A stretch of DNA of 35,331 nucleotides from a virus. Its lineage: Duplodnaviria; Caudoviricetes. Location of the stretch: IMG/VR virus record IMGVR_UViG_3300036805_000138, positions 1-35,331 of that record, one strand, 5' to 3'. The stretch's first letter is position 1. Each line of letters begins with the position of its first letter. The position numbers were made by a program, and so were the translations under genes. Shown in pieces: positions 7,910-34,132 of this stretch. The notes beneath the pieces are model-generated. The model worked only from the letters and a program-made list of their open reading frames with translations. It searched no databases and had not been told where the DNA came from.

Positions 7910-7958
7910 CAAGCTAGGGTGCGCGCATCCGTTAGCGTCCGGCGACGTTAGGTAGGAC

Positions 7959-14135: not shown

Positions 14136-14545
14136 CTCGCTTGAGATATGCATTGGTTTACTGGGAGTGGGTTGCTGTGTACCGCATCCTGACTAGCGCT
14201 CAAAGCATTGACATAATTGTCTAATGCTACATTAAACTTGTTAATCGCTGCTTGATCTATCTCACGTTTATTAGCAAGCTGAGCATCAGTTTTAGAGTCA
14301 TCTTTCGCGACTGTCGCTGTAAGATCACGTAGACTAGCCCATACGCCCTTGCTGGCGTTCCGCGCATTGTTATTAGCTATATCACGAGTACGGAATGCTT
14401 CAGTCACTGCTTGAGCATAGTCACGCGAACATCCTACTTCGTGCGACAGTCGAACATTGTTAACCGATAAAACGATAGCCAAGAGCATGAGAATGCCACC
14501 GACAGCTACTCGCAGCACCCCGTAAGCCTGATGTCGCGAGATCAC
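14132..14545 (-). CDS. single-TM coiled-coil protein, paralog of 13425..13808
   Basis: TM, C...RD.A, ALDNYVNAL, LP...C; SD GGAGG. Confidence 0.7.
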   Translation of the reverse strand: MISRHQAYGVLRVAVGGILMLLAIVLSVNNVRLSHEVGCSRDYAQAVTEAFRTRDIANNNARNASKGVWASLRDLTATVAKDDSKTDAQLANKREIDQAAINKFNVALDNYVNALSASQDAVHSNPLPVNQCISQAR

Positions 14546-17500
14546 TAAATAACCTCCGTGTCACCTTGAGTCATACCTGATACGTCGGTGTCTCCGACTG
14601 CCGTGCCACTCAATGCTGTATCGCCTGCTGTTGAGCTGCTGACCAGCACGGTGTCTTGACTGAGCTGCGTCAGAGCCACCGCACCCACCGCAACGGTGTA
14701 GGTCAGTGTGATCGATCCGACTTGTGGTGGCCATGGTGGTGGGGTGTAGACCGTCGCTGCCAGGACAGCGCTGGCCAGCGTGAGTACTGAGACATCAGCG
14801 AATTTCAGTTGCCGAGCTGCCAGCAGTGCTGAGCTGGTGGTGGTCGCTGTCAGCGCCGCGGTATCGGACCGGTGTGCCAGCGCGAGTACCGATGTGCTGG
14901 TCGATGCGCTGACTGACGCAGTGTCAGTGCGAGTAGCGGTAACCAGGGCTACGGCAGTGGTCGAACTGGCCAGTGCAGTGGTATCGGTGCGGTGTGCGGC
15001 CAGCGTGGCTGAGCTGGTCGTTGCGGCACTGACCGTGCCAACGCCGCCGACCACAGCGGAGACAGCAGCGCCGGCAGTCGTCGTGCTGGCCAGCGCGGCA
15101 ACATCTGTCCGTGTTGCTGTCAGAGTCGCTGTGCTGGTTGTCGCCGAGCTAACCGCACCAGTCTGAGTTCGGGTGCTGGTAACCGTGCTAGCCGCAGTGG
15201 TGGTGCTGGCCAGCGCTGCGCTGTCAGTTCGGGTAGCGGTAACCAGAGCGGTGCTGGCCGCGCTGCCGGTAGCCGCACCAGGCCCTACCGCCAGAGCGGA
15301 AACACTGGCGCCGGCCGTCGTAGTAGAACTGACTGAGACAACGAAAGCAGCGCTGACGGCTGCAGCGCTGGTAGTCGCAGCAGTGACCGCAGCGGTGTCA
15401 ACCCGAGTCGCGGTGACTGTGCTAGCTGCAGTAGTCGAGCTGGTCAGCGCAGTGGTGTCGGTCCGGCTCGCTGTAATCGCTGCACTGTCGGTTGTTGCGC
15501 TGGTCAGTGCTGCGCTATCGGTACGAGTCGCAGTGACCGACGCATTAGCTGTTGTTGAGGTGACGACAGTAGTCGTGACCGCGAGGACTTCGACCGCGAC
15601 GATCGAATAAGTCTGAGTAGGAGTAGTAAGTCCTACTGTCTTCGATCCTGCTGAGCTAGCGTCAGCGTGGAACCCACCATAGACAGTGTATTTAGTGGAA
15701 AGGAAGTTGTAGGTTTCTTCAGTGAATGCCCCAGCGCCAGTACGCCATACCCGAGACGTACCGTCAGCAGCATTAAAGTCGGCGTCGAACACCACCACAG
15801 CAGAATGCGCGGCTGTTGTTGTGATGGCGAGTGTCGGTGCGGCTGAAGCCCCATTGCCTATCGCTGTGTTCCCGATGCCAATAGACGACGAGAACCGATA
15901 GACAGTGAAGCCCCACTCTTTCGTACCGCCTGCGTGTGCGATAGAGAAAGTAAATGTCTCTGCAGTTGTCGCGGTCGCAGTCCACGCATAGAGCGTATTG
16001 CGACCCGTGACATTGACCATGGACTGCTGCAGAGTCCAAGTAAGGCTGGTACCACCAGTCGGTGTTGAGATGGTCTCAGTCGTGAAACAGGTGGCGAAAG
16101 CGACTAATACGTCTCCGACAGCAGTAGTGACAGAGACTGTCTTCGGAGTCGTGGTAGTCGTCCACGAGCCTTCGTATTTAGTGTTGAAGACTGGAGCTAC
16201 AGGAGCTGCCGAAGCCCCGGTGACTGTGGCGCTGACTGTCGTTGCTGAGGTCAACGCTGCGTTGTCAGTACGAGCTGCCGCAACTGAGCTGCCTGCGGTG
16301 CTCGTGCCGGTCAGTGCGGCACTGTCAGCTCGGGCTGCCAGTGTCACGGCAGCCGCGGTGCTCGTGCTGGTCAGAGCTGCTGTGTCAGTCCGGCTCGCTG
16401 CTGAAGTGAACCCAGCAGTAGTAGTCGGGCTGGTAATTGCCGGCCCTACAGGAGTCGCTGAGACGCTGGCAGCAGCAGTCGTGGTCGTACTGACGGCTAC
16501 GGCATAGACCGCGGTGACTGTCGCGCTAGCTGTCGTGGTTGCGCTGAGCCCAGCAGTGTCCGTGCGTGCTGCGGTGATCGAAGCAGCTGCAGTGCTGGTA
16601 CTGGTCAGGCTGGCGGTGTCGGTACGTGACGCTGCTGAGGTGAATCCGGCAGTAGTAGCGGCAGTGACTGAAGCTGGATTGATAGCAGTTGCAGCAACTG
16701 ATGCACTAACCGTGCTGCTGGAGGTAAGCGCGGCGCTATCACTGCGCGCCCCGACAACACTAGACGAGGCTGTGATCGGAGCACTGATGTCAGCTGCGTT
16801 TGAAACAGACGCGACAACACTGCTAGCCGCAGTCGTAGCAGCAGCAATATCAGCAGTGACAGGAGGCGCTGGCGGAACAAACGGTAGAATCTCTAGCGCG
16901 ACTATATTGCTGAAATCCGAAGCGCCCCAGGTACCACCTAGAGTGGTTGCGCCAGGGTTAGTAGTGCGCGCAGCAGCTTTCCACGCGGTGATGTGCACAC
17001 CATTGGTGGTGTCGTTGGTGTCACCGCCAGTAAGAAGTGAAGTAGCGCCATTTAGCGTATACGCTGCAGCCGTGGTTGGGTCATCACTGATGCCATAGAC
17101 CTGAGAGTTCGGCGTAGTGGTGGTGATGCTGACGGTGCCGGTCGTAGTAGAGCTCAGAACAGCGCTGGCAGTCGCCGCACCAGACTGGCTGGTAGCAGCA
17201 TTGTTCAGCACCCGCACAGCCAGCATAGAGCCGCCGGACAGGTTGGTGAACGTTGCGGTAACTGTTATCGCACCAGGCGCGGTAGCTAGATAACAGGTGC
17301 TGATTCTCGCGACACCACCGTTGATGCTGACACCCGTAGCGACGACAGGATTAGTCCAGGTATGGCTGCCTGAGTCGGAGACTGTCACTCCGACTGGCTG
17401 AGTCGAGCCGTAGCCGCCGACTACTAGCACAACCAGCAGCGAGCCGGCAGGAGGTGAGAATGACGCGCTCGTTGCATTACCGTTGGTAGTGCTGGTGACT

Positions 17501-17613
17501 ATCGCAGGTGTCGACGCATCTTCTGCTATTGCAGTAAATATCTGCGGAACAGTTCGCCAGAACGGCGAGTAGTTGAACTGTATCCTGTTGGGCAGACCGC
17601 CGACCCGGCCCAT
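14545..17613 (-). CDS. large Ala/Thr/Ser-rich fibre/adhesin-like virion protein
   Basis: 1022 aa; two beta-rich globular domains separated by ~20-aa repeats (RTDxAALTSxTTAxAxVTA). Confidence 0.7.
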   Translation of the reverse strand: MGRVGGLPNRIQFNYSPFWRTVPQIFTAIAEDASTPAIVTSTTNGNATSASFSPPAGSLLVVLVVGGYGSTQPVGVTVSDSGSHTWTNPVVATGVSINGGVARISTCYLATAPGAITVTATFTNLSGGSMLAVRVLNNAATSQSGAATASAVLSSTTTGTVSITTTTPNSQVYGISDDPTTAAAYTLNGATSLLTGGDTNDTTNGVHITAWKAAARTTNPGATTLGGTWGASDFSNIVALEILPFVPPAPPVTADIAAATTAASSVVASVSNAADISAPITASSSVVGARSDSAALTSSSTVSASVAATAINPASVTAATTAGFTSAASRTDTASLTSTSTAAASITAARTDTAGLSATTTASATVTAVYAVAVSTTTTAAASVSATPVGPAITSPTTTAGFTSAASRTDTAALTSTSTAAAVTLAARADSAALTGTSTAGSSVAAARTDNAALTSATTVSATVTGASAAPVAPVFNTKYEGSWTTTTTPKTVSVTTAVGDVLVAFATCFTTETISTPTGGTSLTWTLQQSMVNVTGRNTLYAWTATATTAETFTFSIAHAGGTKEWGFTVYRFSSSIGIGNTAIGNGASAAPTLAITTTAAHSAVVVFDADFNAADGTSRVWRTGAGAFTEETYNFLSTKYTVYGGFHADASSAGSKTVGLTTPTQTYSIVAVEVLAVTTTVVTSTTANASVTATRTDSAALTSATTDSAAITASRTDTTALTSSTTAASTVTATRVDTAAVTAATTSAAAVSAAFVVSVSSTTTAGASVSALAVGPGAATGSAASTALVTATRTDSAALASTTTAASTVTSTRTQTGAVSSATTSTATLTATRTDVAALASTTTAGAAVSAVVGGVGTVSAATTSSATLAAHRTDTTALASSTTAVALVTATRTDTASVSASTSTSVLALAHRSDTAALTATTTSSALLAARQLKFADVSVLTLASAVLAATVYTPPPWPPQVGSITLTYTVAVGAVALTQLSQDTVLVSSSTAGDTALSGTAVGDTDVSGMTQGDTEVI

Positions 17614-21086: not shown

Positions 21087-21095
21087 CTGCCCCTC

Positions 21096-21800
21096 TTAAA
21101 CAGCGTAGGTAACAGCATGTGGTAGAATTGCACAGCAAAGAGCCCCGACGATGTGCCAACATCTCGGGGCCATGACTCAACCTGAGAGAGCAGGTCAAGT
21201 AATGTCAGAGTATACCAGTGTCGAGCGTTGGCTACCAGTTACCAACTGGAAAGATATCTATGAGGTCAGTGACTACGGTCGCGTGCGCAGTCTAGACCGA
21301 TGGGTGCCTCAACGAAATAGAGGACCACGATTCTGGTCTGGCTGTATACTTGAGCAATACACCCTTGGAGAAGGATACAAAGCAGTAAAGCTACAGTTAT
21401 CAGGATTACGAATAAATCGATACGTACATTCACTCGTTCTCGAAGCATTTGTTAGCTCATGCCCAGTTGGACAAGAATGCCTGCACGGTCCAAACGGTCA
21501 ATTAGACAATACTTTAGCTAATCTATCCTATGGCACAAGAACTCAGAATATGCATGATAAGCGGCGTGATGGCACTAATTACAACAGCAATCGTGTTTAC
21601 TGTCCCCGAGAGCATAAACTAATAACACCTAATCTTGTTCAGTCCCACTTTCCCCGACGTACTTGTCTTGCGTGTCAACGAGTGCGATCTGCATTATACC
21701 AAAAAGGCTGGACTAAAGAAGACTTTAGACTGCGTAAAGATGAGTTTCAAGCAATCACAGACAGGTATTACGCACGTATCATGAGTTAGACAGCGTAGGT
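21096..21800. repeat. 15-bp direct repeat bracketing the HNH insertion
   Basis: TTAAACAGCGTAGGT (21096-21110) vs TTAGACAGCGTAGGT (21786-21800), 14/15 identical. Confidence 0.8.
21202..21789 (+). mobile_element. NUMOD4-HNH homing endonuclease, antisense to the tail operon
   Basis: ERWLPV...YEVSDYGRVRS (NUMOD4); VHSLVLEAF...CLH......DN...NL.YGT..QN (HNH); flanking direct repeat. Confidence 0.88.
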
Positions 21801-23033
21801 CAGCTGCAAATATGGGCGGTAGGATGCGCTGAAGCCATAGCCGCGGAAACCCGAAGCTGAGTCACTGAAGTTATACGAACCACCTAGTACTGAGTTAGCG
21901 TTGCTGTTAATGATATTTGCTATCTGCGACGAGATGTCAAAGCCGTTCCAACTGTTGACCTGCCATAGATTCTTGATGTCGTCACCACCGAACCCATTAT
22001 TCGGGAACGTACCAGCGATTGTTGCGGTCGTGCTCCATCGGTAGGTGAGGTCAGCTGGGATGCTGCTGCCAGCGAAGCAGTACAGAAACATCTGAGCGCT
22101 AAGGACAGTGGCACCGGCTAGATCAGAGCGCATCGTCGTTGCATCGAACGTCCACATGTGCGCTTCGTTGCCATTGCTACGTCCCGACAGCGACCAGGTG
22201 TAGAGGTTGTTGTCGCCGTCAGGTGTACTGATTGGTGAGCCCGAGCCGTTGTAGGAGCGGGAGCCGGTAGCGGGATAGACCTTGACAAACGTCTGCTCAC
22301 CCGATGCTGGCCCTAGCTCAGCTATCCGCATCCACGAGCCAGCCTGCAGTACTGCTGGCGTCGCGTTAGAGGTGTTCTGCCCGAAGCGGTACTGCAGCAG
22401 CCCGCCAGTGTCCGACGTAGCAAACCAAGCTTTCGGATGCTGTACTGCGGAGGTAGTCCAGCCGAAGGTCTCCTGTGAGGAGGCATCACCATAAGAAGTC
22501 ATCGTATCAAACAGCAAGTGAGTAAAGCTGGTGTCTTGAGTTCCCCAGTTAGACCACTTACACGTCATATTCGGAGGACCAGTCCACGCAAATTTGATAT
22601 CAGACGCACTCGTCGCGGCATAGAATATGCAGCCATCGACAGCATACTGCGTATTCTCATCGAGTAAGAAGTTCAACGTACCAGCGTCCTGCATAGCCGT
22701 ACTCGACACTGGCGTACTGACATCACTACGCAATGACCGGTAACGAATAGGGTCGATAAATGTGATGTTACTGGAGTTGCCGATATTGCCCATAATGATG
22801 TAGCCACCAGGAGCCTTGAGCAACAACACCGTTCCTAGCGTAAGACCGTTCGGTGCGCACACCGACAGATTGCGATAGGTAACCGGCCCTACAGTGACCG
22901 TGTTGGACAGCGACGTCGCATCCCACTGTGTTAACAATCCACCAGCGACATTCTGCGCCAAAGTCGGATCAGGAGGTACCGAGCTAGGAGTGATGAACAG
23001 TCGCGTCAAGCCGAATGCATCGGGGACAGTCAC
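21786..23033 (-). CDS. minor tail / receptor-binding protein
   Basis: 415 aa, beta-rich, downstream of the hub gene; SD GGAGG. Confidence 0.7.
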   Translation of the reverse strand: MTVPDAFGLTRLFITPSSVPPDPTLAQNVAGGLLTQWDATSLSNTVTVGPVTYRNLSVCAPNGLTLGTVLLLKAPGGYIIMGNIGNSSNITFIDPIRYRSLRSDVSTPVSSTAMQDAGTLNFLLDENTQYAVDGCIFYAATSASDIKFAWTGPPNMTCKWSNWGTQDTSFTHLLFDTMTSYGDASSQETFGWTTSAVQHPKAWFATSDTGGLLQYRFGQNTSNATPAVLQAGSWMRIAELGPASGEQTFVKVYPATGSRSYNGSGSPISTPDGDNNLYTWSLSGRSNGNEAHMWTFDATTMRSDLAGATVLSAQMFLYCFAGSSIPADLTYRWSTTATIAGTFPNNGFGGDDIKNLWQVNSWNGFDISSQIANIINSNANSVLGGSYNFSDSASGFRGYGFSASYRPYLQLTYAV

Positions 23034-23044
23034 TACACCTCCGT

Positions 23045-23073
23045 TTGCACGACAGTGCAGTCTGTGGTATTAT
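23045..23073 (+). promoter_or_regulatory. conserved antisense promoter, copy 1
   Basis: TTGCAC-17 nt-TATTAT containing CAGTGCAGTCTGTGGTA. Confidence 0.75.
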
Positions 23074-23116
23074 AGTGATCACAATAATTAAGCACTATCT
23101 GAAAGGCAACTCACGC

Positions 23117-23875
23117 ATGTCTGTCTTGTGGACTACACTACTTGTGATTTTCTTTTTAGCCGCGATCTGTGCCCATGAAGCAGCACATGCACTAGCGCTT
23201 CGTAAATTAGGTTATCAAATTGTTGAAGCAGGACTTGGGCTCCCATTCCCGCCCCAATTAACTTTGCAGCCATCTAAACGAGTCCCATTTAAGCTAACAC
23301 TGTCACCATGGCTTCTCGGTGCTTACGTATCACCCGATCAAAAACAACAAAAAGAAATCGAAGCACTACCTTATCAAGACATTGCTTGGTATTCTGGCGC
23401 CGGAGTAGTTGCTAACTTTCTTATTGGTGGAGTCATGTGGGGATTTATTGACATTTACGAAAGTCACTGGCTTAAAGCAGCGATTGTGATTTTGTCAACA
23501 ATAGGTCTATGGTTCGGACGACGACAGTTCACAGCTTACATTCTACCCGTGCTCGCAATCCCTTTACTCTTTCTATTTGGGCACGCCCTTGCTACCACTG
23601 TAGGACAGCCTCAGGGTATCATCGGTCTAGGCGCAGAAATGGTTATGCCGAGTTGGTATGCTGCGTTTACATTTGCTTTCTCACTAACAATGGCTCTCGG
23701 AATACTAAATCTACTTCCGATATTCCCTTTTGATGGCGGTCGTATCACAAACGCAGCGATCATTCGTTTATTCGGAGAAAAATCAGCATCGTGGTTCCGC
23801 AACAGTACTGCCGTACTGGCCATGTGTCTTCTTGTTTATTCTGTAGTGGCTGACTTCGTTTGGCTCGCTCACTGA
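23117..23875 (+). CDS. site-2 protease (peptidase M50) membrane metalloprotease
   Basis: HEAAH, AG...NF, NLLPIFPFDGG; SD GAAAGG; AT-rich. Confidence 0.88.
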   Translation: MSVLWTTLLVIFFLAAICAHEAAHALALRKLGYQIVEAGLGLPFPPQLTLQPSKRVPFKLTLSPWLLGAYVSPDQKQQKEIEALPYQDIAWYSGAGVVANFLIGGVMWGFIDIYESHWLKAAIVILSTIGLWFGRRQFTAYILPVLAIPLLFLFGHALATTVGQPQGIIGLGAEMVMPSWYAAFTFAFSLTMALGILNLLPIFPFDGGRITNAAIIRLFGEKSASWFRNSTAVLAMCLLVYSVVADFVWLAH

Positions 23876-24234
23876 TCGACAACCACCGCAACAGCCAGCA
23901 CCCGGTAGGTCAGCGAGCCATCACCGGTCACTGTTGAAGTCATCCGAGACAGCTCCGTGACCGGCAGCGGTGCGTTGGCCACCGCACTGCCGACTGCTGA
24001 CATCGGTGCGATGTGACTGCCCAGTACCGGAGCCCAGATCGTGCCGTCTGGTGAGGTCTCCATCGACACGTCCAGCGTGGCACTGCCAGTGACCGCGGTG
24101 ATGCACACCCACAGTTCGATGTCGGCGATCGGCAGCTCCACGAAGCTGGCTGAAGTGTAGGTGCCGGCAGACCGAGGCGCCAGCGGCAGCAGCAGCGTAT
24201 CGAGCGGGACGTTGATGCCAGGCGGCAGCGGCAC
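23869..24234 (-). CDS. virion structural protein, paralog of 34898..35260
   Basis: Shared DT......R.AGTY.S, LWV...AV.G..TLDV...TSPDG..W, M.A.GSA..NA. Confidence 0.75.
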   Translation of the reverse strand: MPLPPGINVPLDTLLLPLAPRSAGTYTSASFVELPIADIELWVCITAVTGSATLDVSMETSPDGTIWAPVLGSHIAPMSAVGSAVANAPLPVTELSRMTSTVTGDGSLTYRVLAVAVVVDQ

Positions 24235-24250
24235 GCAACCTCCTCTTCGA

Positions 24251-25450
24251 TTAAAGAATCCCCAGCCCCAACGACAGACCTTCAGTAGCAGTCGGGATGC
24301 GCGTCGTAATCGTGCCGAGCTGGTTAGCCACGAGTGGGATCATGATGGTGTCCAGCATGCAGCGCTGCAGCGGGAAGCCAGGGCGCACGCTGACATCGAG
24401 CGGATCGTTGCACTCCAGTGCCGGGTTGCAAATGGTCGAGATGGTGAACGTCTCTGGCAACGCGATGTAGCGCCGTAATAGCACCTCGCCAGCCAGCTCG
24501 ACATCAGCGTCTACCTGTAGCAGTGGTGAGCTATAGTAAGTCGGGCTAGGGCCGAACTGAGGGAATGTCTTTTTGTTCCATGCTAGTGGGCTGTTCGGAT
24601 CGGCATTAAAAGTGACGATGAAATCTGTGATGCTCGACGGGTCCGATCCATATGCTGTCACGATGTTGTGCACGTCAGTGCGCTTGACAACGCGTTTGAT
24701 AGAGGAGATCGCACCACCACTACCGCCTTGTAGAGTAGCAACAGGATGGCTGAAATCGAACTTCAGAGAATAGACAATCATCTCGCCAGCATTGTTAAAC
24801 CGAATAGCCGCATAGTAGAACTTGATGAGCTGCGCCAGATAAGCATAAGCGTCATCTTCGACTATCTGGTCACCGATGATAGTAGTCGCATCGGGATCAT
24901 ATCCTGACCAGTAGATCGGTACCCGAGCGTCAAGATACATCCCGTAACCATCGGGAGACAGGCCAGGATACGTGGCTTGCTGCGGTATGGCTATCCCGTT
25001 GACGAGCCGCTGGAAGACGTTGCGGTGTGAGTCTCCATTGTTGAGGGGTAAAGGGAAAACCAATTTATTTTGCTGTAATTGGGCGATGCGGTCGAGGGCG
25101 GTGATGACAATGGGGCCGTATGGAGCGTCATCTTGACTAGCTTGCTCGATGCGGTGGTATCCGAGAGGCACGTACTCACGGTCTCCATTAGCGAACTCGA
25201 TACCGCGCTCAATGTAGATCTCCTGTCCGAACGGCTGCACCTGGTCCCAGTATGCTCCTGGGATCGTGATCGTCAGGGTACTCTTGATGTCGGACAGTGA
25301 CTGGATAGTCACATTGCCAGAGATCACCGGCACCTCTGTGCCAGTCGGGTTCGTCCCGAACTGCGGCACCGGATTGCATAGAACAGCCCGTACTGCGATC
25401 TTGTGCGGTCCCTGCAAAGCACTGAGGAACCGTGACGAGACCGAATGCAC
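24251..25450 (-). CDS. DUF5047-family minor tail (baseplate hub/Tal-like) protein
   Basis: VSSRFL.AL...H, PFGQEIYIERG.......EYVPLG..RI, FG..P.YYSSPLL, NPALE..D. Confidence 0.8.
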   Translation of the reverse strand: MHSVSSRFLSALQGPHKIAVRAVLCNPVPQFGTNPTGTEVPVISGNVTIQSLSDIKSTLTITIPGAYWDQVQPFGQEIYIERGIEFANGDREYVPLGYHRIEQASQDDAPYGPIVITALDRIAQLQQNKLVFPLPLNNGDSHRNVFQRLVNGIAIPQQATYPGLSPDGYGMYLDARVPIYWSGYDPDATTIIGDQIVEDDAYAYLAQLIKFYYAAIRFNNAGEMIVYSLKFDFSHPVATLQGGSGGAISSIKRVVKRTDVHNIVTAYGSDPSSITDFIVTFNADPNSPLAWNKKTFPQFGPSPTYYSSPLLQVDADVELAGEVLLRRYIALPETFTISTICNPALECNDPLDVSVRPGFPLQRCMLDTIMIPLVANQLGTITTRIPTATEGLSLGLGIL

Positions 25451-25462
25451 TATACTAACTTA

Positions 25463-25606
25463 ATGGTTTGGTGCGGACCTCTTGATTTCACCAGTAACCC
25501 ATACATCGTTGACTGCCCCTGTCGTCGTTGTCAACGTGGCAAACGCTGCAAAGTAATGGCAATGTGGATTGAGAGATATGAGCTTTATCAAGTGCTTACT
25601 AAATGA
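25463..25606 (+). CDS. 47-aa Cys-rich protein (MVWCGPLDF...CPCRRC...C), leaderless, absent from ORF track
   Basis: TATACT at 25451-25456, ATG 6 nt downstream; ends in an ATGA overlap. Confidence 0.55.
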   Translation: MVWCGPLDFTSNPYIVDCPCRRCQRGKRCKVMAMWIERYELYQVLTK

Positions 25607-25642
25607 AGATAAAGAATGGTTACATCAGCATGGTTGGAGTGG

Positions 25643-25843
25643 TTAAAGTCTCAGCCACGCCGGGTCAGGGTTACTGCAGGCCGAGCCGTCCTTGTGCTGC
25701 GGGTGCTGCCACTCGGTACACTGGCGACAACACATGGTTTTCGGAGGCTCGCAGATCGAACCATGTGCTGAGCAGCACAGGCCAGCGTAGTTACCTGCTG
25801 GTAGCGACTGACGCAACTTCTCACGCTGCCATCGGTAAATCAC
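25643..25843 (-). CDS. 66-aa Cys/His-rich protein
   Basis: CCSAH...CEPP..MCC.QC.E..H; GTGA-coupled to the upstream gene. Confidence 0.5.
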   Translation of the reverse strand: MIYRWQREKLRQSLPAGNYAGLCCSAHGSICEPPKTMCCRQCTEWQHPQHKDGSACSNPDPAWLRL

Positions 25844-26184
25844 AATGATTTCCTCACAATGTAATCCCGGTGTGCGTGTTGTGCTTTCCTTAACTCAATA
25901 TCTGGATGATGCTCACCGACAATGCCATCAAAAACTACTACAGCAGCCATTATAGTGATAATAAGCCCAATACAGCCAATTGTGATTGATGCTGCAGCCC
26001 AGCCTGCTGTGTCTATATGCTGTAATGCACCCTCAAAACCTGTGTAAGCTCCTAAAGCAATAAAAGCTAAGAAAAACAATAAGAATGCAGCAAAGATACG
26101 CACCCAACGCTTGTACGCCCGTAGTGATGTTCGTGCGTCATCAAGTGCATCAAGTAAATGCTGCTCTTCCAATGGGTCATCCAT
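25840..26184 (-). CDS. two-TM membrane protein, AT-rich moron, probably leaderless
   Basis: TAGAAT 6 nt before the ATG, no SD. Confidence 0.7.
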   Translation of the reverse strand: MDDPLEEQHLLDALDDARTSLRAYKRWVRIFAAFLLFFLAFIALGAYTGFEGALQHIDTAGWAAASITIGCIGLIITIMAAVVVFDGIVGEHHPDIELRKAQHAHRDYIVRKSL

Positions 26185-26207
26185 GAAACTATTCTATCGT
26201 ACTGACA

Positions 26208-27626
26208 TTACGAAACACCTACCAGCGCGTCAGCAGGAGTGCCTTGCAATGCAAGCACCGCTGACCATGTTGCATTAGCCGCTAGCTCAGTGCTCCAGTC
26301 AGTGTAATTAGTGATCAAAGTTGCCCACGTGACTGTAGTGCCAACAATACTGAGATCCGGCATGCTAACCTCAGTCAATGGCACAGTAATCGTATTGCGA
26401 TGAGACAAATGTGCTGGCTTGACGTAGTTGTAGGTCCCGACTCCCGCATACATACTCTTCAGCGCTAAATTCACAGGCGTCTGCAGCAGCATGATGATGC
26501 CTAGTGACAGCACCAAATCTACTGCCGCTATCTCGACATCATCCTGTGTGAACAGCGAGATAGTGACAGTGCGCGGCGAGTGCAAATCAGTCGACGCAAT
26601 GGCAGTACGCTTGCCGACGATCGGAAAGAAGCCAAGACGTGTGGTGCGTTCCGTCTCCTCCCAACCGATCAGCATGACCGATCGGTTGAGGTAGGGAGCG
26701 CTAGGAAACTTCAGCCACACCAGACTCATCGCTGGGGTGATGCTCGCGCTCGTGCGGGTCACGTAATCGGCGTTGCGCAACGCCACCGCAGCACCGTAGC
26801 TGATGACAGAGGTTCCACCAGTCACTGTGAACACTCCCGAGCTGACTGCAGCCGGCGTGGTGAGCAGCTGGTAATCCCAGACCATGCCGGCGTCCAGGCC
26901 AGCGGTGCTCACTGGCTCACCGATCTCGGTAGCTCCTGAAATCGTGGCTACGCTCGTCCAGTCGTCGGCTTTCCAGCCGAGGTAGAGCACCGCAGTCCAC
27001 GTTGACTCAACACCGGCCATCGGTGGGTAGGTGATGTTCTGCGCACTCGGATTGAGCTGGTAAGCGGTTGCGGCCGGCGTGCGCTCACAGTTGCGGAAGC
27101 AAGCCATCTGAGCGATCACGTCGCTGCCAGACGTACCCGTGACACCACCTGTGACACTGACAGTCGGCGTAGATTCGCTGGTCAGAGCCCGTTTACCGAA
27201 CAGCCCGATGTTGTCGGTCTGCATCATGACAGTCCAGCCCGTGGGGCACACCACTGTGCCAGTGCCAGAGTTTCTGATGCTCGCCCAGATCACCAGTAGG
27301 TCACCTTCGGCGTAGCCCACTGGCACAGTCGGGGACACTGCGACACCGCTAGCGCTGACCGCGGTGCTCGACGCTACGAACGTCGGCAAGTTCAGGTCAA
27401 CTGCAGACACCCGGTAGTAGTTAACCACACCAGGGCTAAACTCGTAATCGATCAAGCTAGCTGCAGTGTTCACAATCGTCACTGCGCTGCCACCACGCAC
27501 CTGCGTCCAGTGGATCTGATCCGTTGAAACTTCAAACAGCGCTACGTCCGCTGTCGCAGGCAGCGAGGTCGCCGACAGCAAGACTCTTGCGGTGGTGTCG
27601 TCGTAAGACGTCGTTAATGTCGCCAT
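26208..27626 (-). CDS. distal-tail (Dit)-like protein with inserted beta domain
   Basis: First large gene after the TMP; W.QVRG, DYEF.PG...YYRV, VWLKFP..P.LN. Confidence 0.7.
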   Translation of the reverse strand: MATLTTSYDDTTARVLLSATSLPATADVALFEVSTDQIHWTQVRGGSAVTIVNTAASLIDYEFSPGVVNYYRVSAVDLNLPTFVASSTAVSASGVAVSPTVPVGYAEGDLLVIWASIRNSGTGTVVCPTGWTVMMQTDNIGLFGKRALTSESTPTVSVTGGVTGTSGSDVIAQMACFRNCERTPAATAYQLNPSAQNITYPPMAGVESTWTAVLYLGWKADDWTSVATISGATEIGEPVSTAGLDAGMVWDYQLLTTPAAVSSGVFTVTGGTSVISYGAAVALRNADYVTRTSASITPAMSLVWLKFPSAPYLNRSVMLIGWEETERTTRLGFFPIVGKRTAIASTDLHSPRTVTISLFTQDDVEIAAVDLVLSLGIIMLLQTPVNLALKSMYAGVGTYNYVKPAHLSHRNTITVPLTEVSMPDLSIVGTTVTWATLITNYTDWSTELAANATWSAVLALQGTPADALVGVS

Positions 27627-28375
27627 GTGTCTCGCATTCTTATGTCAAGACGTTTATGGCATTTTGCACAACGCGCTGTATAATGCGTCATATCTACACT
27701 ATAGATTAGCCCTGTTGAGGCATCAATTTTGTCATTAGAATCTGTGTGATCATAAGACCAATGCAATGCTCTATTACCACACTGTTCTGCGCACATATGC
27801 GCTGACGCTAGACCAAGACGTTTACGCATTCTATTATGCATAGCAATGTACGTAGCTGAATTTCCAAGCCATTTATAGTGTGCTTCGTCAGGTTGCCCAA
27901 ATGGTCCCGCAGTTCGATGTACATCACCATATTTGCGTAAACGCTCTAAATGCATTTGACAATAGCTACGTCCGTAATGAGATTTTCCACAGCCGTCAAT
28001 AGAACAAATGCCACGAGGTGCACGAAATTCTGCCGAGCCTACTGACCCAGTTACGAGCCAACGTGAGTAATGCCCTGAACACCACCCCCGAGAGTGCGCT
28101 TTACGTTCACATCCATCAAGAGAGCAAAATCCAGGAGATCGGTCTATTGGCTCAAACTTCCCAGCATTATGAAGATCAGTCCGCAACTTTTGATAATGCT
28201 TTGAGCAAACTTGACGCGCCAAAACATGACGCTCGCAACCATCAACAGAACAGACTCGGGTAGTCTTGATGACTAGCCCCCTTCCGGTGAGGTCGGACAG
28301 GTGGGTCAGGGCCTGGCCAGGAGCGTCAACTCCTGCTAGGCCCGTTTCACTATACAGGAGAGTCAGTGAGGCCAC
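27614..28375 (-). mobile_element. HNH-like endonuclease with three CSxDGC..C..H zinc repeats
   Basis: CSVDGC/CSLDGC/CSIDGC repeats; C-terminal C...CG..A.HWSYDH...RCAKCH; AT-rich. Confidence 0.7.
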
Positions 28376-28428
28376 GGAAAAATACTCCAGTCCTCTAGTT
28401 CACCCGTACGGAGTAACAGCTAGCTTTG

Positions 28429-28449
28429 CAGTGCAGCGTGTGGTAGTGT
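28429..28449 (+). promoter_or_regulatory. conserved antisense promoter, copy 2
   Basis: CAGTGCAGCGTGTGG-TAGTGT, ATG 7 nt downstream. Confidence 0.7.
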
Positions 28450-28456
28450 CTAGTCT

Positions 28457-28693
28457 ATGATTGAAATTCCTATTCGACAACAATTGTTACAACAACTAGT
28501 TAACTATCTCATGTGTTTAAAGCCACAACCTAAGTCCATATGGGTCGTTATGGACTATAAAGATTACAACCCATTCACCGGCCATATCTGCTACACAAAA
28601 CAATATGCTCAATACTTTGCTGATAAATTAAAACTCAAAGATCCAGCATACGCAACACTTATTGGCGTAGAAGAATGGGAGATTGAAAGTTAA
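28457..28693 (+). CDS. hypothetical AT-rich protein, leaderless
   Basis: Begins 7 nt after the -10 element. Confidence 0.7.
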   Translation: MIEIPIRQQLLQQLVNYLMCLKPQPKSIWVVMDYKDYNPFTGHICYTKQYAQYFADKLKLKDPAYATLIGVEEWEIES

Positions 28694-28715
28694 GTACCGC
28701 TAAGAAAGGACCAAA

Positions 28716-28880
28716 ATGACTGAGCACGAAGCTTACGAGCGAGCCAAGGAGCAAGCAAAGTCGCATGACACATCTCGATGTGGAGGAGCATGGAGGGCGC
28801 ACACAGATCCTGATGAACGTCGAGCATGCATTGCTAAAGAAGATATGCGTCCTCGTTGGTATCAGAGAAAGCAAGCATAA
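28716..28880 (+). CDS. 54-aa hypothetical protein (MTEHEAYERA...)
   Basis: SD GAAAGGA; TAATG overlap with the next gene. Confidence 0.6.
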   Translation: MTEHEAYERAKEQAKSHDTSRCGGAWRAHTDPDERRACIAKEDMRPRWYQRKQA

Positions 28881-29191
28881 TGAGACGAGATCAACCCAAC
28901 GTTAGTGATACTGAAGCCATGCAGCAAGCTTGCCCAATGTGTCACCAACCCAGTGGATCGCCATGTGTCTACGTACGTCCAGCAATGCATGACTCACGTA
29001 GTAGATCTGCAGACGTGCAGCGTAGATTAAGTAGAGTTGGCACACCGACGAATATCGTACATCATGATCGTCGTAGAGTAATTATAGAAGCGCGTAGTCG
29101 CGAGTTCGATACTCAACTCAATAAAGAACGTGAAGAAAGTAAACAACGACAATCGTGGGTATCTGCGCTGTCTGCCATAATTAATAGCTAA
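28880..29191 (+). CDS. zinc-finger protein (CPMC..PSG.PC...H..R)
   Basis: Phage Zn-binding motif; coupled start. Confidence 0.6.
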   Translation: MRRDQPNVSDTEAMQQACPMCHQPSGSPCVYVRPAMHDSRSRSADVQRRLSRVGTPTNIVHHDRRRVIIEARSREFDTQLNKEREESKQRQSWVSALSAIINS

Positions 29192-29341
29192 ACGAAGTGC
29201 AACGCAGCTAGCCGGATCATGCTCACGCTGATCAACTGGCTGGTGCAGCTCGTGGCACACCGCACCACAGTCACACAACGTGGAGCACTGCCGCGTAACC
29301 TCCCAGTGCTGGTGTCGGCGTGCGCGGCGGTGCTGAGGCAT
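29027..29341 (-). CDS. Cys/His-rich hypothetical protein
   Basis: C...CDCG.VCHE.H; TGATG-coupled to a 36-aa ORF at 29341..29451. Confidence 0.35.
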   Translation of the reverse strand: MPQHRRARRHQHWEVTRQCSTLCDCGAVCHELHQPVDQREHDPASCVALRLAINYGRQRRYPRLSLFTFFTFFIELSIELATTRFYNYSTTIMMYDIRRCANST

Positions 29342-29447
29342 CAGTCGCCACTATGAAGGAGCCAACACGGCGGGTGCGCGCACCCAACCGTGCTAGCTTG
29401 ATCCCTCATCGTTTTGATGTATGGCAGAGACTCGACCAACTGCCCGA

Positions 29448-30632
29448 TCATACGATAGACCCGCGGCCCATGCGCGCGGCGACCGCGACACCTTGAGTCA
29501 TCATGCTGATCTGGCTGGTGACCATGTTCTGCAGCTCCGTCTCTCCGATCTTTACGGTGACCTGATGGAAGTGGTTGCCGCCCATGACAGCGTTCGGTGT
29601 GATGAAGCCACTGCCACCCATGCGCAAGATCTCGGGACCATGCTCACCTACCAGATAGCTTCGGCCACCCATCACCGGGCCGCCAGCAGCTTTGCCACCA
29701 CCGAACAGTGATGAGAAGAAACCGCTGATGCCATGGATAATGCCGCTGAAGAACCCACCAATGCCGCCACTGCTGCTAGTCGTTCCGCCAGTAGCTCCTG
29801 CAACACTACCGATCGCACCAGCACTGCTCGTGATGCCACTGAGGCCGGCAAGAATAGGGGCTATGAAGTTCATGATGCTGCCGAGCCAGCCCATCAGTAT
29901 CTGCAACAAAGGCAACAAACTGATCAGGATATTGGCAAAACTGGTAAACAGTGAAATCATAGTCGGCAGCATGGACTCAATGATCGGCAGAATCCTTGCG
30001 CCCATACCAGAAAACGCAGTCATCCAGTTCTGTATCGCTGCTATCACCTGTGGCTGCAGCAAGAACTGAACCAACTTCTCACGCAAGTCACCTAGTGAAG
30101 TAGCGATGCCGCCCAAACCAGTACCAAGAATAGGAAAGTATACTTGCGCTAACTGAGTAACATCACCTGAGAAACCAGCCCAGAAACCTTGCTGAATGAT
30201 GCCGTACAAATTCTTTAGCTGCGGTTCGAGCAATCGCACCGACATAACAGCATCTTTCATGGCGGGTGCCATATTGCGTGTTGCCGCGACAAACTCTGCC
30301 GGTGATGCCGCACTAATGGCGGTCGAGAAATTAGCCATCGCCATCTGTGCAATATTGATCGGGTTTACTAATGCCAACAAGAAACCAGGAATAATAAGAA
30401 ATATCTTAGCTATCTTGCCCAGCGCATTGAACACGCCATTGACCAACGGCTTGATATTGCCGGTTAGCGCAGCTCCGAACATCTTACCAACATTAACAAC
30501 TGCGTCGCCCATTTTGCCGAGAATCGCAGTTGCTTGTTTCGTTGACGCAATAAGATTGCTAACAGATCCCTTGAAGTTGATAAAGACAGTGCGCTGAGTT
30601 GCCATCGCACCGCTAGCAGAGGCAGCGGTCAC
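29448..30632 (-). CDS. tape measure protein (short, 394 aa)
   Basis: Amphipathic helical repeats; C-terminal AAGGPV.GGRSYLVGEHGPEI; SD AGGAGG; downstream of the tail chaperones. Confidence 0.8.
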   Translation of the reverse strand: MTAASASGAMATQRTVFINFKGSVSNLIASTKQATAILGKMGDAVVNVGKMFGAALTGNIKPLVNGVFNALGKIAKIFLIIPGFLLALVNPINIAQMAMANFSTAISAASPAEFVAATRNMAPAMKDAVMSVRLLEPQLKNLYGIIQQGFWAGFSGDVTQLAQVYFPILGTGLGGIATSLGDLREKLVQFLLQPQVIAAIQNWMTAFSGMGARILPIIESMLPTMISLFTSFANILISLLPLLQILMGWLGSIMNFIAPILAGLSGITSSAGAIGSVAGATGGTTSSSGGIGGFFSGIIHGISGFFSSLFGGGKAAGGPVMGGRSYLVGEHGPEILRMGGSGFITPNAVMGGNHFHQVTVKIGETELQNMVTSQISMMTQGVAVAARMGRGSIV

Positions 30633-30647
30633 TTACTGCGCCTCCTT

Positions 30648-31568
30648 TTAGCCTGAGTAAAGTTTAGCCATAAATGACGGATGCGCACTGTACAAATCGC
30701 CTGGCTGTACCAAGTTCGATCCTGCTGCTTCATCGTAGCCACGTGACTCAGGACCTGAGTCCGGCATATATGCAGTGTTGCTTAGCGGATCGGCACCAAG
30801 TTGGCCAAAGCGGTTACCGACATCATTAAGGCCACTAGCGTTATCTTGAGCAACTGTCGTCCACCCGCCTAAGTTACTCCATTGCATGCCACTGTCACCA
30901 GCTAACTCATCTTGCCCGAGTGTGCTCACGCCACCAATATCAGACCACACCGAATCATCAAACTTATTGCCGTAATCTTGCTCTTGCTGAGATGGAAAAT
31001 CAGATGGCTTAGTCAAAGCATCGCCAGTGTCGGTGCTGCTATCTTTATGACTCCAACCAGACAATGATTTATCCATCGCCTGTTGAGTAGCCTGCTGCGC
31101 GGGGTCATCAGACATAGGCGAGCCACCCATAGCCATTGATGTACTCTGGCTCCAAGGACTGAAAGACGCAGGAAACCCACTAGTCGATGACGAACTAGCA
31201 CCATAAGAAGGGAGCATATTCTGCGTATTGTCATCAATAGGTGGCGCACCCGATGGCATATTAGCTTCAGGTGGTGCATTATCCGATATCGCTGATTTCA
31301 TGTTATTAAGCATATCTCCAGGCAGCGAATTATTAGCCCCAAACATGCCTGACAAACTATTAGGATCCAAGTTAGTGCTGTACGAGTCAGAGTAAGTGTT
31401 AGCGCCTTCGATTGGCTGCTCTGGCCCCACTGTGGCGCCGGCAACACCTGTGTTCAGCCCTGCATCACCAGGATCAGGTGAGTCGAACTGATAAGCTTGA
31501 CTATCTGATGCAGCTTCTGAACCTCCGAAAGCATCCCCAGTGTCCGCGTCACCAATCGGATCGCTCAT
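30648..31568 (-). CDS. acidic Ser/Asp/Gly-rich disordered protein of unknown function
   Basis: 306-aa ORF ATGA-coupled to the chaperone extension. Confidence 0.7.
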   Translation of the reverse strand: MSDPIGDADTGDAFGGSEAASDSQAYQFDSPDPGDAGLNTGVAGATVGPEQPIEGANTYSDSYSTNLDPNSLSGMFGANNSLPGDMLNNMKSAISDNAPPEANMPSGAPPIDDNTQNMLPSYGASSSSTSGFPASFSPWSQSTSMAMGGSPMSDDPAQQATQQAMDKSLSGWSHKDSSTDTGDALTKPSDFPSQQEQDYGNKFDDSVWSDIGGVSTLGQDELAGDSGMQWSNLGGWTTVAQDNASGLNDVGNRFGQLGADPLSNTAYMPDSGPESRGYDEAAGSNLVQPGDLYSAHPSFMAKLYSG

Positions 31569-31735
31569 CCGCTCATCTGCCTACCTTCGGGATCTTCCTT
31601 TTCACTCTGTTTATTCAGTATCTCAACAGCGGTCACAATGGTTCGCCAATCTTGATCAAACCAGTCACTAGGTGAGCCACCCGATGCCAATGCAATAGAG
31701 ATGATAAGCCGAGTCACCGACCCGGCTGGGTAGGG
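31565..31735 (-). CDS. tail assembly chaperone -1 frameshift extension (gpT-like)
   Basis: -1 frame PYPAGSVTRLIISIALASGGSPSDWFDQDWRTIVTAVEIL...; stop overlaps the next ATG. Confidence 0.7.
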   Translation of the reverse strand, partial: PYPAGSVTRLIISIALASGGSPSDWFDQDWRTIVTAVEILNKQSEKEDPEGRQMSG

Positions 31736-31986
31736 GTTGTATCAGCACCATTGACGTCGAGGTCAAGGTCTACTGAAGTCTCCCACTCAGCCAGCGTGCC
31801 TACAAACTTGCCTTGCCGCCGTGCGGCAATGTGGCTCACCGAGTACATATCAGACATTCTCGGATCAGCTTCGAGGCGAGCCATGTTGTTATTGCGATCT
31901 ATTTTCTCCCAGACCACGATGTCGCGACTACCCACTATAAGATCGTAAGACTCGCCATTGTCCGGATTGATCCGTATCGTCATCAT
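31714..31986 (-). CDS. tail assembly chaperone (gpG-like)
   Basis: Position after the tail genes; RDIVVWE; ends with TTPTQPGR. Confidence 0.7.
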   Translation of the reverse strand: MMTIRINPDNGESYDLIVGSRDIVVWEKIDRNNNMARLEADPRMSDMYSVSHIAARRQGKFVGTLAEWETSVDLDLDVNGADTTPTQPGR

Positions 31987-32507
31987 CAGACGCTGGCGCC
32001 GATCACTGTTATTTCATAAGAGACTGGCGTCGTACCTGCTGAGTTGGCGATCTGCAGTAAGTCAGTCGAGCTAGCGGTTATTGGGTAGGCCGTAGCATCG
32101 GCGGTCCCGGCTATCCACATTGCGGTAGCACCTGGTCGCAGAATCGTGGTGTGCGTCGTCGCGCCGAACAGGCCGGTCATGGTGGTCGTGCCACCACCAA
32201 CGACCACGTTGTTAGTGTTGGCTGCCGCGGCTGAGACAATCAGGGCCTTGATCCGGGCGAAGGTCAGCGTCGCGCCCGAGCTAGGATCAGCCAGCGCGCC
32301 GGCAAAGTCGATGTTCTCCGTCGCACTGGCCGTCAGTGTGCGGAACGACCACCACGCGGTGTCAGCCGCGCCAGCGACCGTGCCACTGATCAGCGATGCA
32401 CCGTAGGACTTCGACCAGTTAGCGCTGACTGTGGAGCCGGTGATCGGGTTGCTGGCGATCGTCGCTGATACCGACAGGCTGATCACTGTGGAGAGTGCCA
32501 CAGACAC
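31986..32507 (-). CDS. tail-associated structural protein
   Basis: RTL.ASATENID.AG.L.DP.G.TLTFARIKAL, DLLQIANS; SD GGGAGG. Confidence 0.7.
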   Translation of the reverse strand: MSVALSTVISLSVSATIASNPITGSTVSANWSKSYGASLISGTVAGAADTAWWSFRTLTASATENIDFAGALADPSSGATLTFARIKALIVSAAAANTNNVVVGGGTTTMTGLFGATTHTTILRPGATAMWIAGTADATAYPITASSTDLLQIANSAGTTPVSYEITVIGASV

Positions 32508-32517
32508 CTCCCTTGTG

Positions 32518-32542
32518 TTGACAGTGCAGCGTGTGGTAGTAT
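32518..32542 (+). promoter_or_regulatory. conserved antisense promoter, copy 3
   Basis: TTGACAGTGCAGCGTGTGG-TAGTAT, ATG (32550) 7 nt downstream. Confidence 0.75.
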
Positions 32543-32549
32543 GTTAGCT

Positions 32550-32744
32550 ATGAGAAAATTTGAGTTCAATGTACGACGTGATTCTGGTGCCCATCCATCT
32601 TTACCCACAGAGACAATCACAGTCGAAGATGCGTCGCTACTGCAAGCACGATATCGTGCCAGTGTTGAATACGCTGCAAACAATAAAATAGACCCTACAT
32701 CGCCAGATATTAAAATGGAACTAATATCTTACACTTCGGATTAA
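32550..32744 (+). CDS. 64-aa hypothetical protein, leaderless
   Basis: Start revised from 32541; stop overlaps the major tail stop (TTAA). Confidence 0.65.
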   Translation: MRKFEFNVRRDSGAHPSLPTETITVEDASLLQARYRASVEYAANNKIDPTSPDIKMELISYTSD

Positions 32745-33205
32745 CCAACCCGAGTGAACGTCGGCACACCAAGAATAAGCATGGTGATTGATGTTTCCTC
32801 AATGGTGCGCAAGTCACCACCCACAGTTGGCGCCTTAATCACACAAGTTCCTGACCATCGTACGTGCTCACCGACGACATCAGGCATATGATCGAGCACG
32901 AAAGCAGCATACGCGCGGCTGTTGTTCCATAGATAATCAGAGATCCCACCAGCTCGCCAGTCAGCAAAGAACTTCACCTGCAAAGCGTAATCGTTATCAG
33001 TTTCAGTCCTGAATTCGCTAAGGTTCCCTCCGTAACTCCAGGTCTTAGTCCCGTCTACCGTGTTATTAAGAATGCTCCAGTTATTCAGCTGCATTGATTG
33101 GTCCACTCCATTAAGAGTGAACACAACAATTTTTAACCGTCTGGTGTGAACTAATAACCCACTGGGCGCAGTGATCGGACCACCATAGTAGATTGGGGCA
33201 GTCAT
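32741..33205 (-). CDS. major tail protein
   Basis: Position after the tail terminator; W.G.....AP.VGG...T.E...I.M...G.P.F. Confidence 0.7.
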   Translation of the reverse strand: MTAPIYYGGPITAPSGLLVHTRRLKIVVFTLNGVDQSMQLNNWSILNNTVDGTKTWSYGGNLSEFRTETDNDYALQVKFFADWRAGGISDYLWNNSRAYAAFVLDHMPDVVGEHVRWSGTCVIKAPTVGGDLRTIEETSITMLILGVPTFTRVG

Positions 33206-33217
33206 TTGCGCCTCCAG

Positions 33218-33246
33218 TTGACTGACAGTGCAGTGTGTGGTATTAT
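33218..33246 (+). promoter_or_regulatory. conserved antisense promoter, copy 4
   Basis: TTGACT-17 nt-TATTAT containing CAGTGCAGTGTGTGGTA; ATG 7 nt downstream. Confidence 0.8.
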
Positions 33247-33253
33247 CTAACTC

Positions 33254-33484
33254 ATGCCATGGAGAGATGAACTACTCAAATTAGCAAATCGTTACTATGA
33301 TGAAGCGCATGTTTTAGAAAAACGAGCTGTAGAACGAGAAGTTAATGATGCTCGATCTACCAGCGCTACAGTGATGTGGGCGCAAGCAGACTGTTACCAC
33401 GAAATCTACAGCGAGCTATGCTCACTAGTTTCTCGCCTTGATCCACGTCCTGGCGCGCCAGAAGGTCCTGCTAAGCCTTGGTAA
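33254..33484 (+). CDS. 76-aa helical hypothetical protein, leaderless
   Basis: Exactly fills the gap between two structural genes. Confidence 0.7.
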   Translation: MPWRDELLKLANRYYDEAHVLEKRAVEREVNDARSTSATVMWAQADCYHEIYSELCSLVSRLDPRPGAPEGPAKPW

Positions 33485-33486
33485 AA

Positions 33487-33873
33487 TTACCTAGTGTTTA
33501 GCTCCATTTGACAAACAGTGATATAACACGGCAGCGGACCGCTAGGACTCGGATACGTGCCTGGCCCTGACGACAGCACAACCCCTGGCGTATAACGCTC
33601 CACAGCCTCAGTAATCGCCCCTACCAGAGTCAGCAGCTGGTCAAGCGCATACTGTGACACGCCAGTCACCAGATACAGGCTCCACTGCACTGTGAGCGGC
33701 TGGCCGCCCACACTGGCCTCCCCGACGTAACCCAACCGCGGTGGCCCGACTACCACTGCCGGTGGGCTGATCGGGGTAGCGATGTTAGTACTGATCCGGA
33801 TGCCAGGGATAATGATCAACGCAGCAGCGAGCCGTTGAGTAGCGTCAGCGATCGGTGTCAGCGCAGCAGTCAT
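33487..33873 (-). CDS. tail terminator-like protein
   Basis: L..IPGIR......ISPPAVVVGPP...LPCY; SD GGAGG. Confidence 0.7.
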   Translation of the reverse strand: MTAALTPIADATQRLAAALIIIPGIRISTNIATPISPPAVVVGPPRLGYVGEASVGGQPLTVQWSLYLVTGVSQYALDQLLTLVGAITEAVERYTPGVVLSSGPGTYPSPSGPLPCYITVCQMELNTR

Positions 33874-33898
33874 CTGGCGCCTCCGATATCATCCTAAG

Positions 33899-34132
33899 AT
33901 GAAAAACGCATGCCATGCGAAATACGGACATAAGATAGTGCATATACAAAGTGGCTGTCATACTTACCCATGGCCGCTGTACAATAGCTACGGAAGATAC
34001 ATAAACAGCCATCGAGATGTTATTACTTGTTGGATTTGCCTACGCAGTGAAGCGGGCGTAATCGTACGAAATCCCGCTAGAAAACTTGCTGAATTAGGTC
34101 AATTTTTAAGCGAGGCCGCCCATGATCCCTAG
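33899..34132 (+). CDS. 77-aa hypothetical protein (VH...C...ITCWIC), probably leaderless
   Basis: TATCAT 6 nt before the ATG; AT-rich. Confidence 0.55.
   Translation: MKNACHAKYGHKIVHIQSGCHTYPWPLYNSYGRYINSHRDVITCWICLRSEAGVIVRNPARKLAELGQFLSEAAHDP

Follow-up and report, generated by a model that had tools for sequence, protein, structure and literature searches.

Four boxed cassettes among the virion genes

In this paper we looked at the IMG/VR record IMGVR_UViG_3300036805_000138 (35,331 nucleotides, referred to here as the window), a 35-kb tailed-phage fragment whose minus-strand virion genes span from the head-tail connector to the endolysin. Four junctions between these genes hold a plus-strand cassette, composed of a promoter-like head with a conserved box (CAGTRCAG) and a cargo of one or three open reading frames (ORFs). 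Head 1 (23038..23073) contains CCTCC, a -35 element TTGCAC, the box (23053-23060), TGTGG and a -10 element TATTAT, and its CCTCC is the minus-strand Shine-Dalgarno sequence (SD) of the tail gene 21786-23033. Cargo 1 (23117..23875) is an M50 (site-2-type) metalloprotease, as the initial annotation had recognized (Pfam PF02163, E 1.7e-22); its start was corrected from 23015 to 23117, which leaves it with a leader, and it overlaps the antisense end of gene 23869-24234 by 7 nt. Head 2 (28414..28456; box 28429-28436, -10 TAGTGT) has no adjacent CTCC and lies upstream of the distal-tail gene leader. Its cargo (28457..29191) comprises the orphan ORFs 28457-28693, 28716-28880 and 28880-29191. Head 3 (32507..32549) contains CCTCC, the box (32522-32529) and a -10 element TAGTAT; here CCTCC is the SD of the gene ending at 31986, which likely starts with GTG at 32501. 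Cargo 3 (32550..32744), a 64-aa leaderless orphan, shares a 4-nt stop-stop overlap with the major tail gene. Head 4 (33211..33253) contains CCTCC, which is the SD of the major tail gene, a -35 element TTGACT, the box (33226-33233) and a -10 element TATTAT. The stop of cargo 4 (33254..33484), a 76-aa leaderless orphan, is 2 nt from that of gene 33487-33873. Three of the four cargoes are thus leaderless, with an ATG (28457, 32550, 33254) 7 nt past the -10 element.

The initial annotation was based on a 17-mer with plus-strand copies at 23053, 28429, 32522 and 33226. All four are exact, each leads into a TAnnnT -10 element, and CCTCC stands directly upstream of three of them (23038, 32507, 33211) and not of the copy at 28429. 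In shuffled sequences the mean was 0.67 copies with 3 mismatches allowed, and four copies were reached in 0/100. The claim that the cargo is AT-rich also holds, with a GC content of 0.35-0.50 (protease 0.46; three-gene run 0.35/0.50/0.46; the other two ~0.41 and 0.47) versus 0.48-0.65 in ten flanking virion genes. The stop geometry is as described at 23869-23875, 32741-32744 and 33484/33487, so that overlap or abutment is true for cargoes 1, 3 and 4, but the three-gene cargo stops 257 bp before the tape-measure stop. Two points required revision: the partial copy at 21113 is a 3' half only, falls under our cut-off and is part of an HNH insertion, and two box-less leaderless antisense inserts (25463, 33899) had been missed.

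The cassette system is real and specific to one clade. We analyzed the window together with 12 relatives, among which G001 is complete (71,198 bp with terminal repeats); G005 was left out as its cassettes are identical to those of G001. With a position weight matrix (PWM) cut-off of 13 bits, 78 sites were found, 74 of them oriented against the virion operon. The initial annotation had raised the concern that the motif might be equally frequent inside genes or in the host genome. Core genes account for 140 of 260 kb, yet none of the 78 sites falls within one, and GTDB contains single scattered matches only. A degenerate 23-nt scan of IMG/VR gave 45 rows, 43 of them in 14 contigs of the clade (L105 and L110 were not placed), and the same scan of GTDB gave 34 single matches in unrelated taxa, where no title names an actinomycete and two read only 'bacterium'. 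Such scattered matches argue against a host regulon of that exact form, but not against a looser host site. When gene 31986-32507 was used as a query, 80 loci were found, 8 at 87-99% identity (one being the window's own sequence) and 72 at 36-55%; the motif scores 37-41 bits in 8/8 of the close loci (≥87% identity), whereas 0/72 of the distant ones exceed 9.7. Against cultured phages head 4 gave one weak match only, to a Salmonella phage (E 3). No paper on the clade or on SD-bearing heads was found and the motif strings were absent from the literature searched, with subscription papers (e.g. Juhala 2000) outside the search. A parS site was considered and set aside, as by eye and against the parS consensus the motif is not palindromic.

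Head anatomy, slots and neighbouring features

In the window and its relatives, 54 boxed cassettes occupy 12 virion-gene junctions. Their heads are promoter-like in sequence anatomy (-35, box, extended -10, -10, start codon) and have the consensus CTCC, TTG-nnn, (T)GR-CAGTRCAG-nn-TGTGR-TAnnnT, 6-7 nt, ATG. An ATG or GTG is found at offset 6 or 7 past the -10 element in 49/54 cassettes and at 16 or 17 in two more, while random positions have a start at offset 6/7 in 3.3%. CTCC lies 8-13 nt ahead of the box in 47/54 of these heads versus 3/20 sites elsewhere, and TTG is present at -35 in 37/54. The box shows invariant columns interspersed with free ones, and at position 4 both A and G occur within a single slot and a single genome. 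The distance from the box to the -10 element is fixed at 7 bp, or exactly 10 more: the class II sites (n=14), found mainly in an accessory cluster that precedes the terminase, have TGnG/TAnnnT a second time, exactly 10 bp beyond the first, and in 3 of them the first -10 element is broken. The same box fronts an early-type accessory cluster in the complete, integrase-less relative. In weaker form it also stands before the replication operons of that genome (helicase, DNA polymerase A, SSB-like). In G002 and G008, heads of this type front two endonuclease inserts in sense orientation (endonuclease-VII-like by eye). In Streptomyces, TAnnnT promoters with leaderless mRNAs are described as common, at 21% of primary transcription start sites (TSSs; PMC4895711). 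A generic sigma70 promoter scan was uninformative (18 matches vs 14.3 in shuffles). In a scan that is weak for high-GC actinomycete hosts, neither the four window heads nor the plus strand beyond the four cargo stops of the window had a terminator-like site, and the head alignments show no stem-loop.

An alignment of the relatives shows other cargo or none at the same junctions, as the idea of swappable slots had predicted. Empty alleles were found for all four window junctions: that of cargo 1 in G001, G002 and G003, that of cargo 4 in G001 and G004, and that of cargo 2, which holds other cargo in other relatives, in G004. At the slot before the major tail gene (cargo 3) the cargo families differ in 7/7 boxed alleles. 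Population joints, read from contigs of two soil DNA runs, one of them possibly the window's source, give an empty state at 23034-23881 and 32500-32741 (with loose ends at 32557/32559) and a replaced state at 33246-33486 and 28452-29191. In the empty alleles the flanking genes overlap or are almost contiguous, with gaps of -1 to 8 nt (distal-tail slot: 42 nt); in the filled ones the downstream virion gene has a separate SD and often a GTG start.

The 51 translated cargo proteins fall into 39 families (blastp E 1e-3), a count in which short proteins may be under-clustered. Almost all are orphans, and only two DNA methyltransferases and the M50 protease could be named. When 53 cargo proteins were compared with Pfam, only the two methyltransferases were called, with scores close to or below the cut-offs, apart from weak indications of zinc ribbons; 49 compared with PHROGs gave 4 weak matches, all of unknown function, and 16 compared with PADLOC gave 1 weak match. 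Cargo stops are located inside the virion gene end, or ≤80 nt from it, in 30/45 cases. We rejected the 4-nt stop-stop overlap (12/45) as a target site, as the stops of other alleles are found at -14 to -35 or at +4 to +10. Stop-stop overlaps are common for convergent genes. The ORF 25603-25848, which probably shadows a conserved ORF on the minus strand, was not counted as cargo. Only 1/54 heads (L129_134) has no ORF, and in the 19 kb of G004 there are no more than 2 boxed sites.

Leaderless antisense inserts also exist without the box. The one at 25451..25606 (plus strand, -10 TATACT, ATG 25463) is a frameshifted homologue of boxed cargo at another junction of G004. The one at 33881..34132 (plus strand, CTCC, -10 TATCAT at 33887, ATG 33899) has the same cargo in G003 and L019, while its junction is boxed with other cargo in five relatives and empty in G004. 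The capsid/protease slot is box-less in all 8 sequences, yet holds ~6 cargo types (by eye). At this junction (G001 39580-39615 and seven relatives) lies a different conserved antisense promoter with a leaderless ATG, a GC-rich inverted repeat in its spacer and a near-consensus -10 element.

Two HNH insertions lie nearby. The plus-strand NUMOD4-HNH endonuclease insertion (21095..21789) has a half-box promoter (21113-21128) and is not a full member of the family. At 21095-21810 it is flanked by an imperfect direct repeat of the last ~20 nt of the tail gene 21786-23033, and it is missing from the junction in 4/4 relatives. A strong hairpin (-31 kcal/mol, 70 nt) is predicted to span its first ATG (21151); translation likely starts around 21202. 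At 27614-28454 a second HNH gene (minus strand) now uses the start and leader that originally belonged to the distal-tail gene: the segment 28359-28454 corresponds to the 5' end of that gene in relatives, the distal-tail gene itself has acquired a new start at 27626, and a joint 27605-28359 represents the empty allele. Beside the distal-tail slot, ~150 bp (29184-29345), likely a small Cys-rich minus-strand ORF, are kept at 88-95% in relatives in which the slot is filled, and a palindromic word at 29371-29395 recurs inverted at 7907-7931. At 29448-31568 two ORFs follow each other, first an acidic and variable one of 306 aa and then one of 394 aa that contains the tape-measure match; this two-gene split is present in all close relatives.

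The left part of the window encodes Lsr2, a DUF2637 protein, an FtsK/TraB-like protein and an aminotransferase-V. The phage clade is uncultured, and its hosts are likely soil actinomycetes, based on Lsr2, on the only plasmid match of the TraB-like protein (Micromonospora) and on the best named terminase matches (Rhodococcus and Mycobacterium phages, 33-35%). The major tail protein found no relative and no prophage in GTDB, and the DNA polymerase, used as a query for further relatives, found G001 itself only. The DUF2637 and FtsK/TraB-like pair (window 41-2301, G001 2738-5091) occurs in a phage whose complete relative has no integrase. Such a pair is typical of actinomycete plasmids and integrative elements, and a phage-plasmid or hyphal spreading is possible. 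The aminotransferase class V gene (6256-7584, cysteine desulfurase-like) and Lsr2 (8655-8987) are both kept in G001 and G002, and Lsr2 could silence the AT-richer cargo. The protein encoded at 14545-17613 (1022 aa, Ser/Thr/Ala-rich repeats of 20-aa period, no family match) is probably a tail fibre or adhesin. In G001, in antisense orientation immediately upstream of the terminase, a ferritin-like protein (665 aa) is followed by an MbnB/TglH/ChrH enzyme that modifies ribosomally synthesized peptides (RiPPs; 45410-48403, L135:9410-12403); this pair is kept in G003.

Possible functions of the heads

The explanation to which we lean, with slightly more confidence than doubt, is that these are moron-type cassettes whose head is a clade-specific early or middle promoter, read by the housekeeping RNA polymerase of the host and shut off through a protein that binds CAGTRCAG. 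In this mechanism the ATG would be the transcription start, so that the mRNA would be leaderless and no leader would be needed, and the built-in SD would substitute for the translational coupling that is broken by the insert; we propose that a coupled junction thereby becomes a safe landing slot. New cargo would be captured behind the resident head via micro- or non-homologous joins, on the left between the -10 element and the first codons and on the right at the stop of the virion gene, and would then spread among relatives by ordinary recombination through the flanking core genes. Stretches of 25-39 bp that are identical between heads may at times let heads and cargo move to another junction. 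With one operator common to all, the phage could turn the heads off jointly before virion synthesis, a need that we infer from promoters facing the late operon without a terminator. For the protein itself a repressor seems somewhat preferable to an activator, since with a TTG at -35, an extended -10 and a kept -10 element the promoter should fire unaided.

Several points weigh against this explanation. The TSSs, the timing and the choice of a repressor over an activator are read from the sequence; the sites were chosen by the box, hence the conservation of the box versus the -35 element is partly circular. Among 63 antisense leaderless starts in virion gaps, 22 lack a 7/8 match to the box, including all 7 listed at the capsid/protease slot, so a common shut-off would not be universal. 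There is a single complete relative, and several contigs possibly come from related samples. Our regulator hunt tied no regulator to the box: it found no WhiB and one sub-threshold HTH_17, in G003 only. A leaderless 64-aa ribbon-helix-helix (RHH/Arc-like) gene of G001 (59761-59955; L136:8566-8757, minus strand) was retained as a lead only, with fold matches at E above 1 and a different palindrome upstream. That palindrome is a perfect one of 16 bp, half of which resembles the -35 region of the portal/terminase-slot heads.

One other option, which we hold to be possible but rather unlikely, is that the box is an activator site (sigma adaptation or appropriation) and that a phage factor turns on the cargo together with the replication genes as one middle class. 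In favour of this, the box is located at about -27 to -20 with a constant spacing to a canonical TAnnnT, PafBC and AfsR are reported to bind at similar positions (PMC8635444, PMC10936776), the replication operons carry the box, and only 12/54 heads match ≥4 of TTGAC. Yet TTG is kept in most heads and the extended -10 is strong, both the GTC triplet of PafBC and the 11-bp direct repeat of SARP targets are absent, and in class II sites the box is one turn further from the leaderless -10 element, with the proximal one broken in 3/14. A bolder and somewhat less probable view makes the head a self-contained mobile junction adaptor that would repair the translation of the interrupted virion gene, capture any ORF leaderless and hop via its box; with a dozen antisense promoters on one phage switch, accessory expression and operon silencing would be a single timed event. 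The silencing could even be the chief product, with heads that act as an excludon-like timer, through antisense RNA or through collision with late transcription, and a cargo that is incidental. The orientation of nearly all sites against the late operon, the cargo stops in or near virion gene ends and the lack of terminator-like sites after them agree with such a timer, but ORF-less heads are rare, empty junctions are common, G004 manages with its two sites, and the terminator scan is weak for actinomycetes; we regard it as the most improbable of these explanations.

The initial annotation had left the choice between an operator and a recombination handle, and it is the operator that our data favour. 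That the core is mainly a handle, of the kind known from promoter-early-stem-loop (PeSL) cassettes, with its similarity kept by exchange or copying and not by a DNA-binding protein, appears doubtful, although it is partly supported. Two cargo families are each present at two junctions, where the homology begins in the motif and extends as far as the cargo stop or close to it. Heads of different slots have up to 39 bp in common, G008 and L112 contain tandem double cassettes, one double cassette has the head type of another slot, a joint (29340-33212) places a major-tail-type head in the distal-tail slot, and G001 encodes a PD-(D/E)XK exonuclease. Heads are also slot-specific upstream of the box (59-82% versus 22-60%) and much less so downstream of the -10 element. 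However, the box-less capsid/protease slot turns over its cargo as well. Same-slot pairs with different cargo keep identity past the -10 element in 33/89 and into the cargo ORF in 4, some swaps lie downstream of the ATG inside the first codons (the loose ends 32557/32559), and only 7/1028 cross-slot pairs have ≥25 bp in common. Neither a tyrosine (PF00589) nor a serine (PF07508) recombinase was found in 3 records including the complete G001 (0/3). A 252-aa gene beside the exonuclease of G001 was tried as a recombinase and could not be named (atlas score under 0.9). Homogenisation would not give alternating invariant and free columns, and these, with the fixed spacing and the exact 10-bp shift, lead us to see in the box chiefly a regulatory site and only secondarily a handle; it is not an obligatory recombination handle and likely acts as one only now and then.

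Meaning and comparison with known systems

By what route morons could get into a virion operon with tight coupling and leave it intact has long been an open point. The alleles point to a concrete one, as one head brings both the missing SD and a leaderless promoter, and the empty, filled, double and relocated states are all documented. The box is a precise marker for accessory genes, and the 39 mostly orphan families, DNA methyltransferases and M50 protease included, are candidates for host-takeover and counter-defence screens. The clade-specific and probably switchable actinomycete promoter can easily be tested in reporters.

The closest known systems are morons and PeSL cassettes. Morons of lambdoid and other tailed phages (HK97 gene 15 type; Tab of JBD26) are described as accessory genes that occur singly between virion genes, have a promoter of their own and are as a rule oriented against late transcription (PMC2839356, PMC10884400; definitions also in PMC6316719). 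Our cassettes resemble them in being inserted between genes that are adjacent in relatives and in a GC content below that of the flanking genes. They differ in that at least 12 junctions use one promoter family, mostly leaderless and with a back-to-back SD, and in that an own terminator was not found, in the scan weak for high-GC hosts, after the four cargo stops, which abut or overlap virion genes. No integrase is present in the complete relative, so that expression by an integrated prophage is not the obvious rationale. The PeSL cassettes of the T4-type phages RB49/phi1 (Arbiol et al. 2010) are reported with a consensus sigma70 promoter, a stem-loop terminator and an SD, mostly in hyperplastic regions (PMC2839356). 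A repeated promoter element before ORFans, cargo that is inserted, deleted or replaced between relatives, and short homology usable for exchange are common to both systems, whereas our heads are without a stem-loop, leaderless, with a non-consensus spacer box, and antisense within the virion core. For the mini-circles of PeSLs we see only indirect signs, namely the tandem cassettes and cross-slot moves. The dedicated tyrosine or serine recombinase of integron and site-specific cassette systems was not found in the three records searched.

Like PafBC, SARP/AfsR and T4 MotA sites, the heads have a specific box between -20 and -30 whose spacing to a TAnnnT -10 element is fixed, but here a TTG at -35 is often kept and no such factor was identified. 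The PafBC promoter is given as tGTCgg(N10)tA(N3)T with a conserved GTC (PMC8635444); the matching positions of our heads read RCAGTR and do not fit this pattern. SARP targets are described as direct repeats at a distance of 11 or 22 bp, of which the 3' copy lies 8 bp from the -10 element (PMC10936776), a similar distance, but class I head alignments show no upstream copy (by eye). For the Cluster O mycobacteriophages, a 17-bp palindromic repeat, orientation-free and often intragenic, is reported together with leaderless SigA-like promoters, one of them backwards in the structural operon (PMC4351075). An actinophage-type, genome-specific repeated motif and leaderless SigA-like promoters are found in both; our box, unlike that repeat, is asymmetric, always at the promoter position and never inside core genes. 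What appears new is the box, the leaderless SD-bearing head and the allele series.

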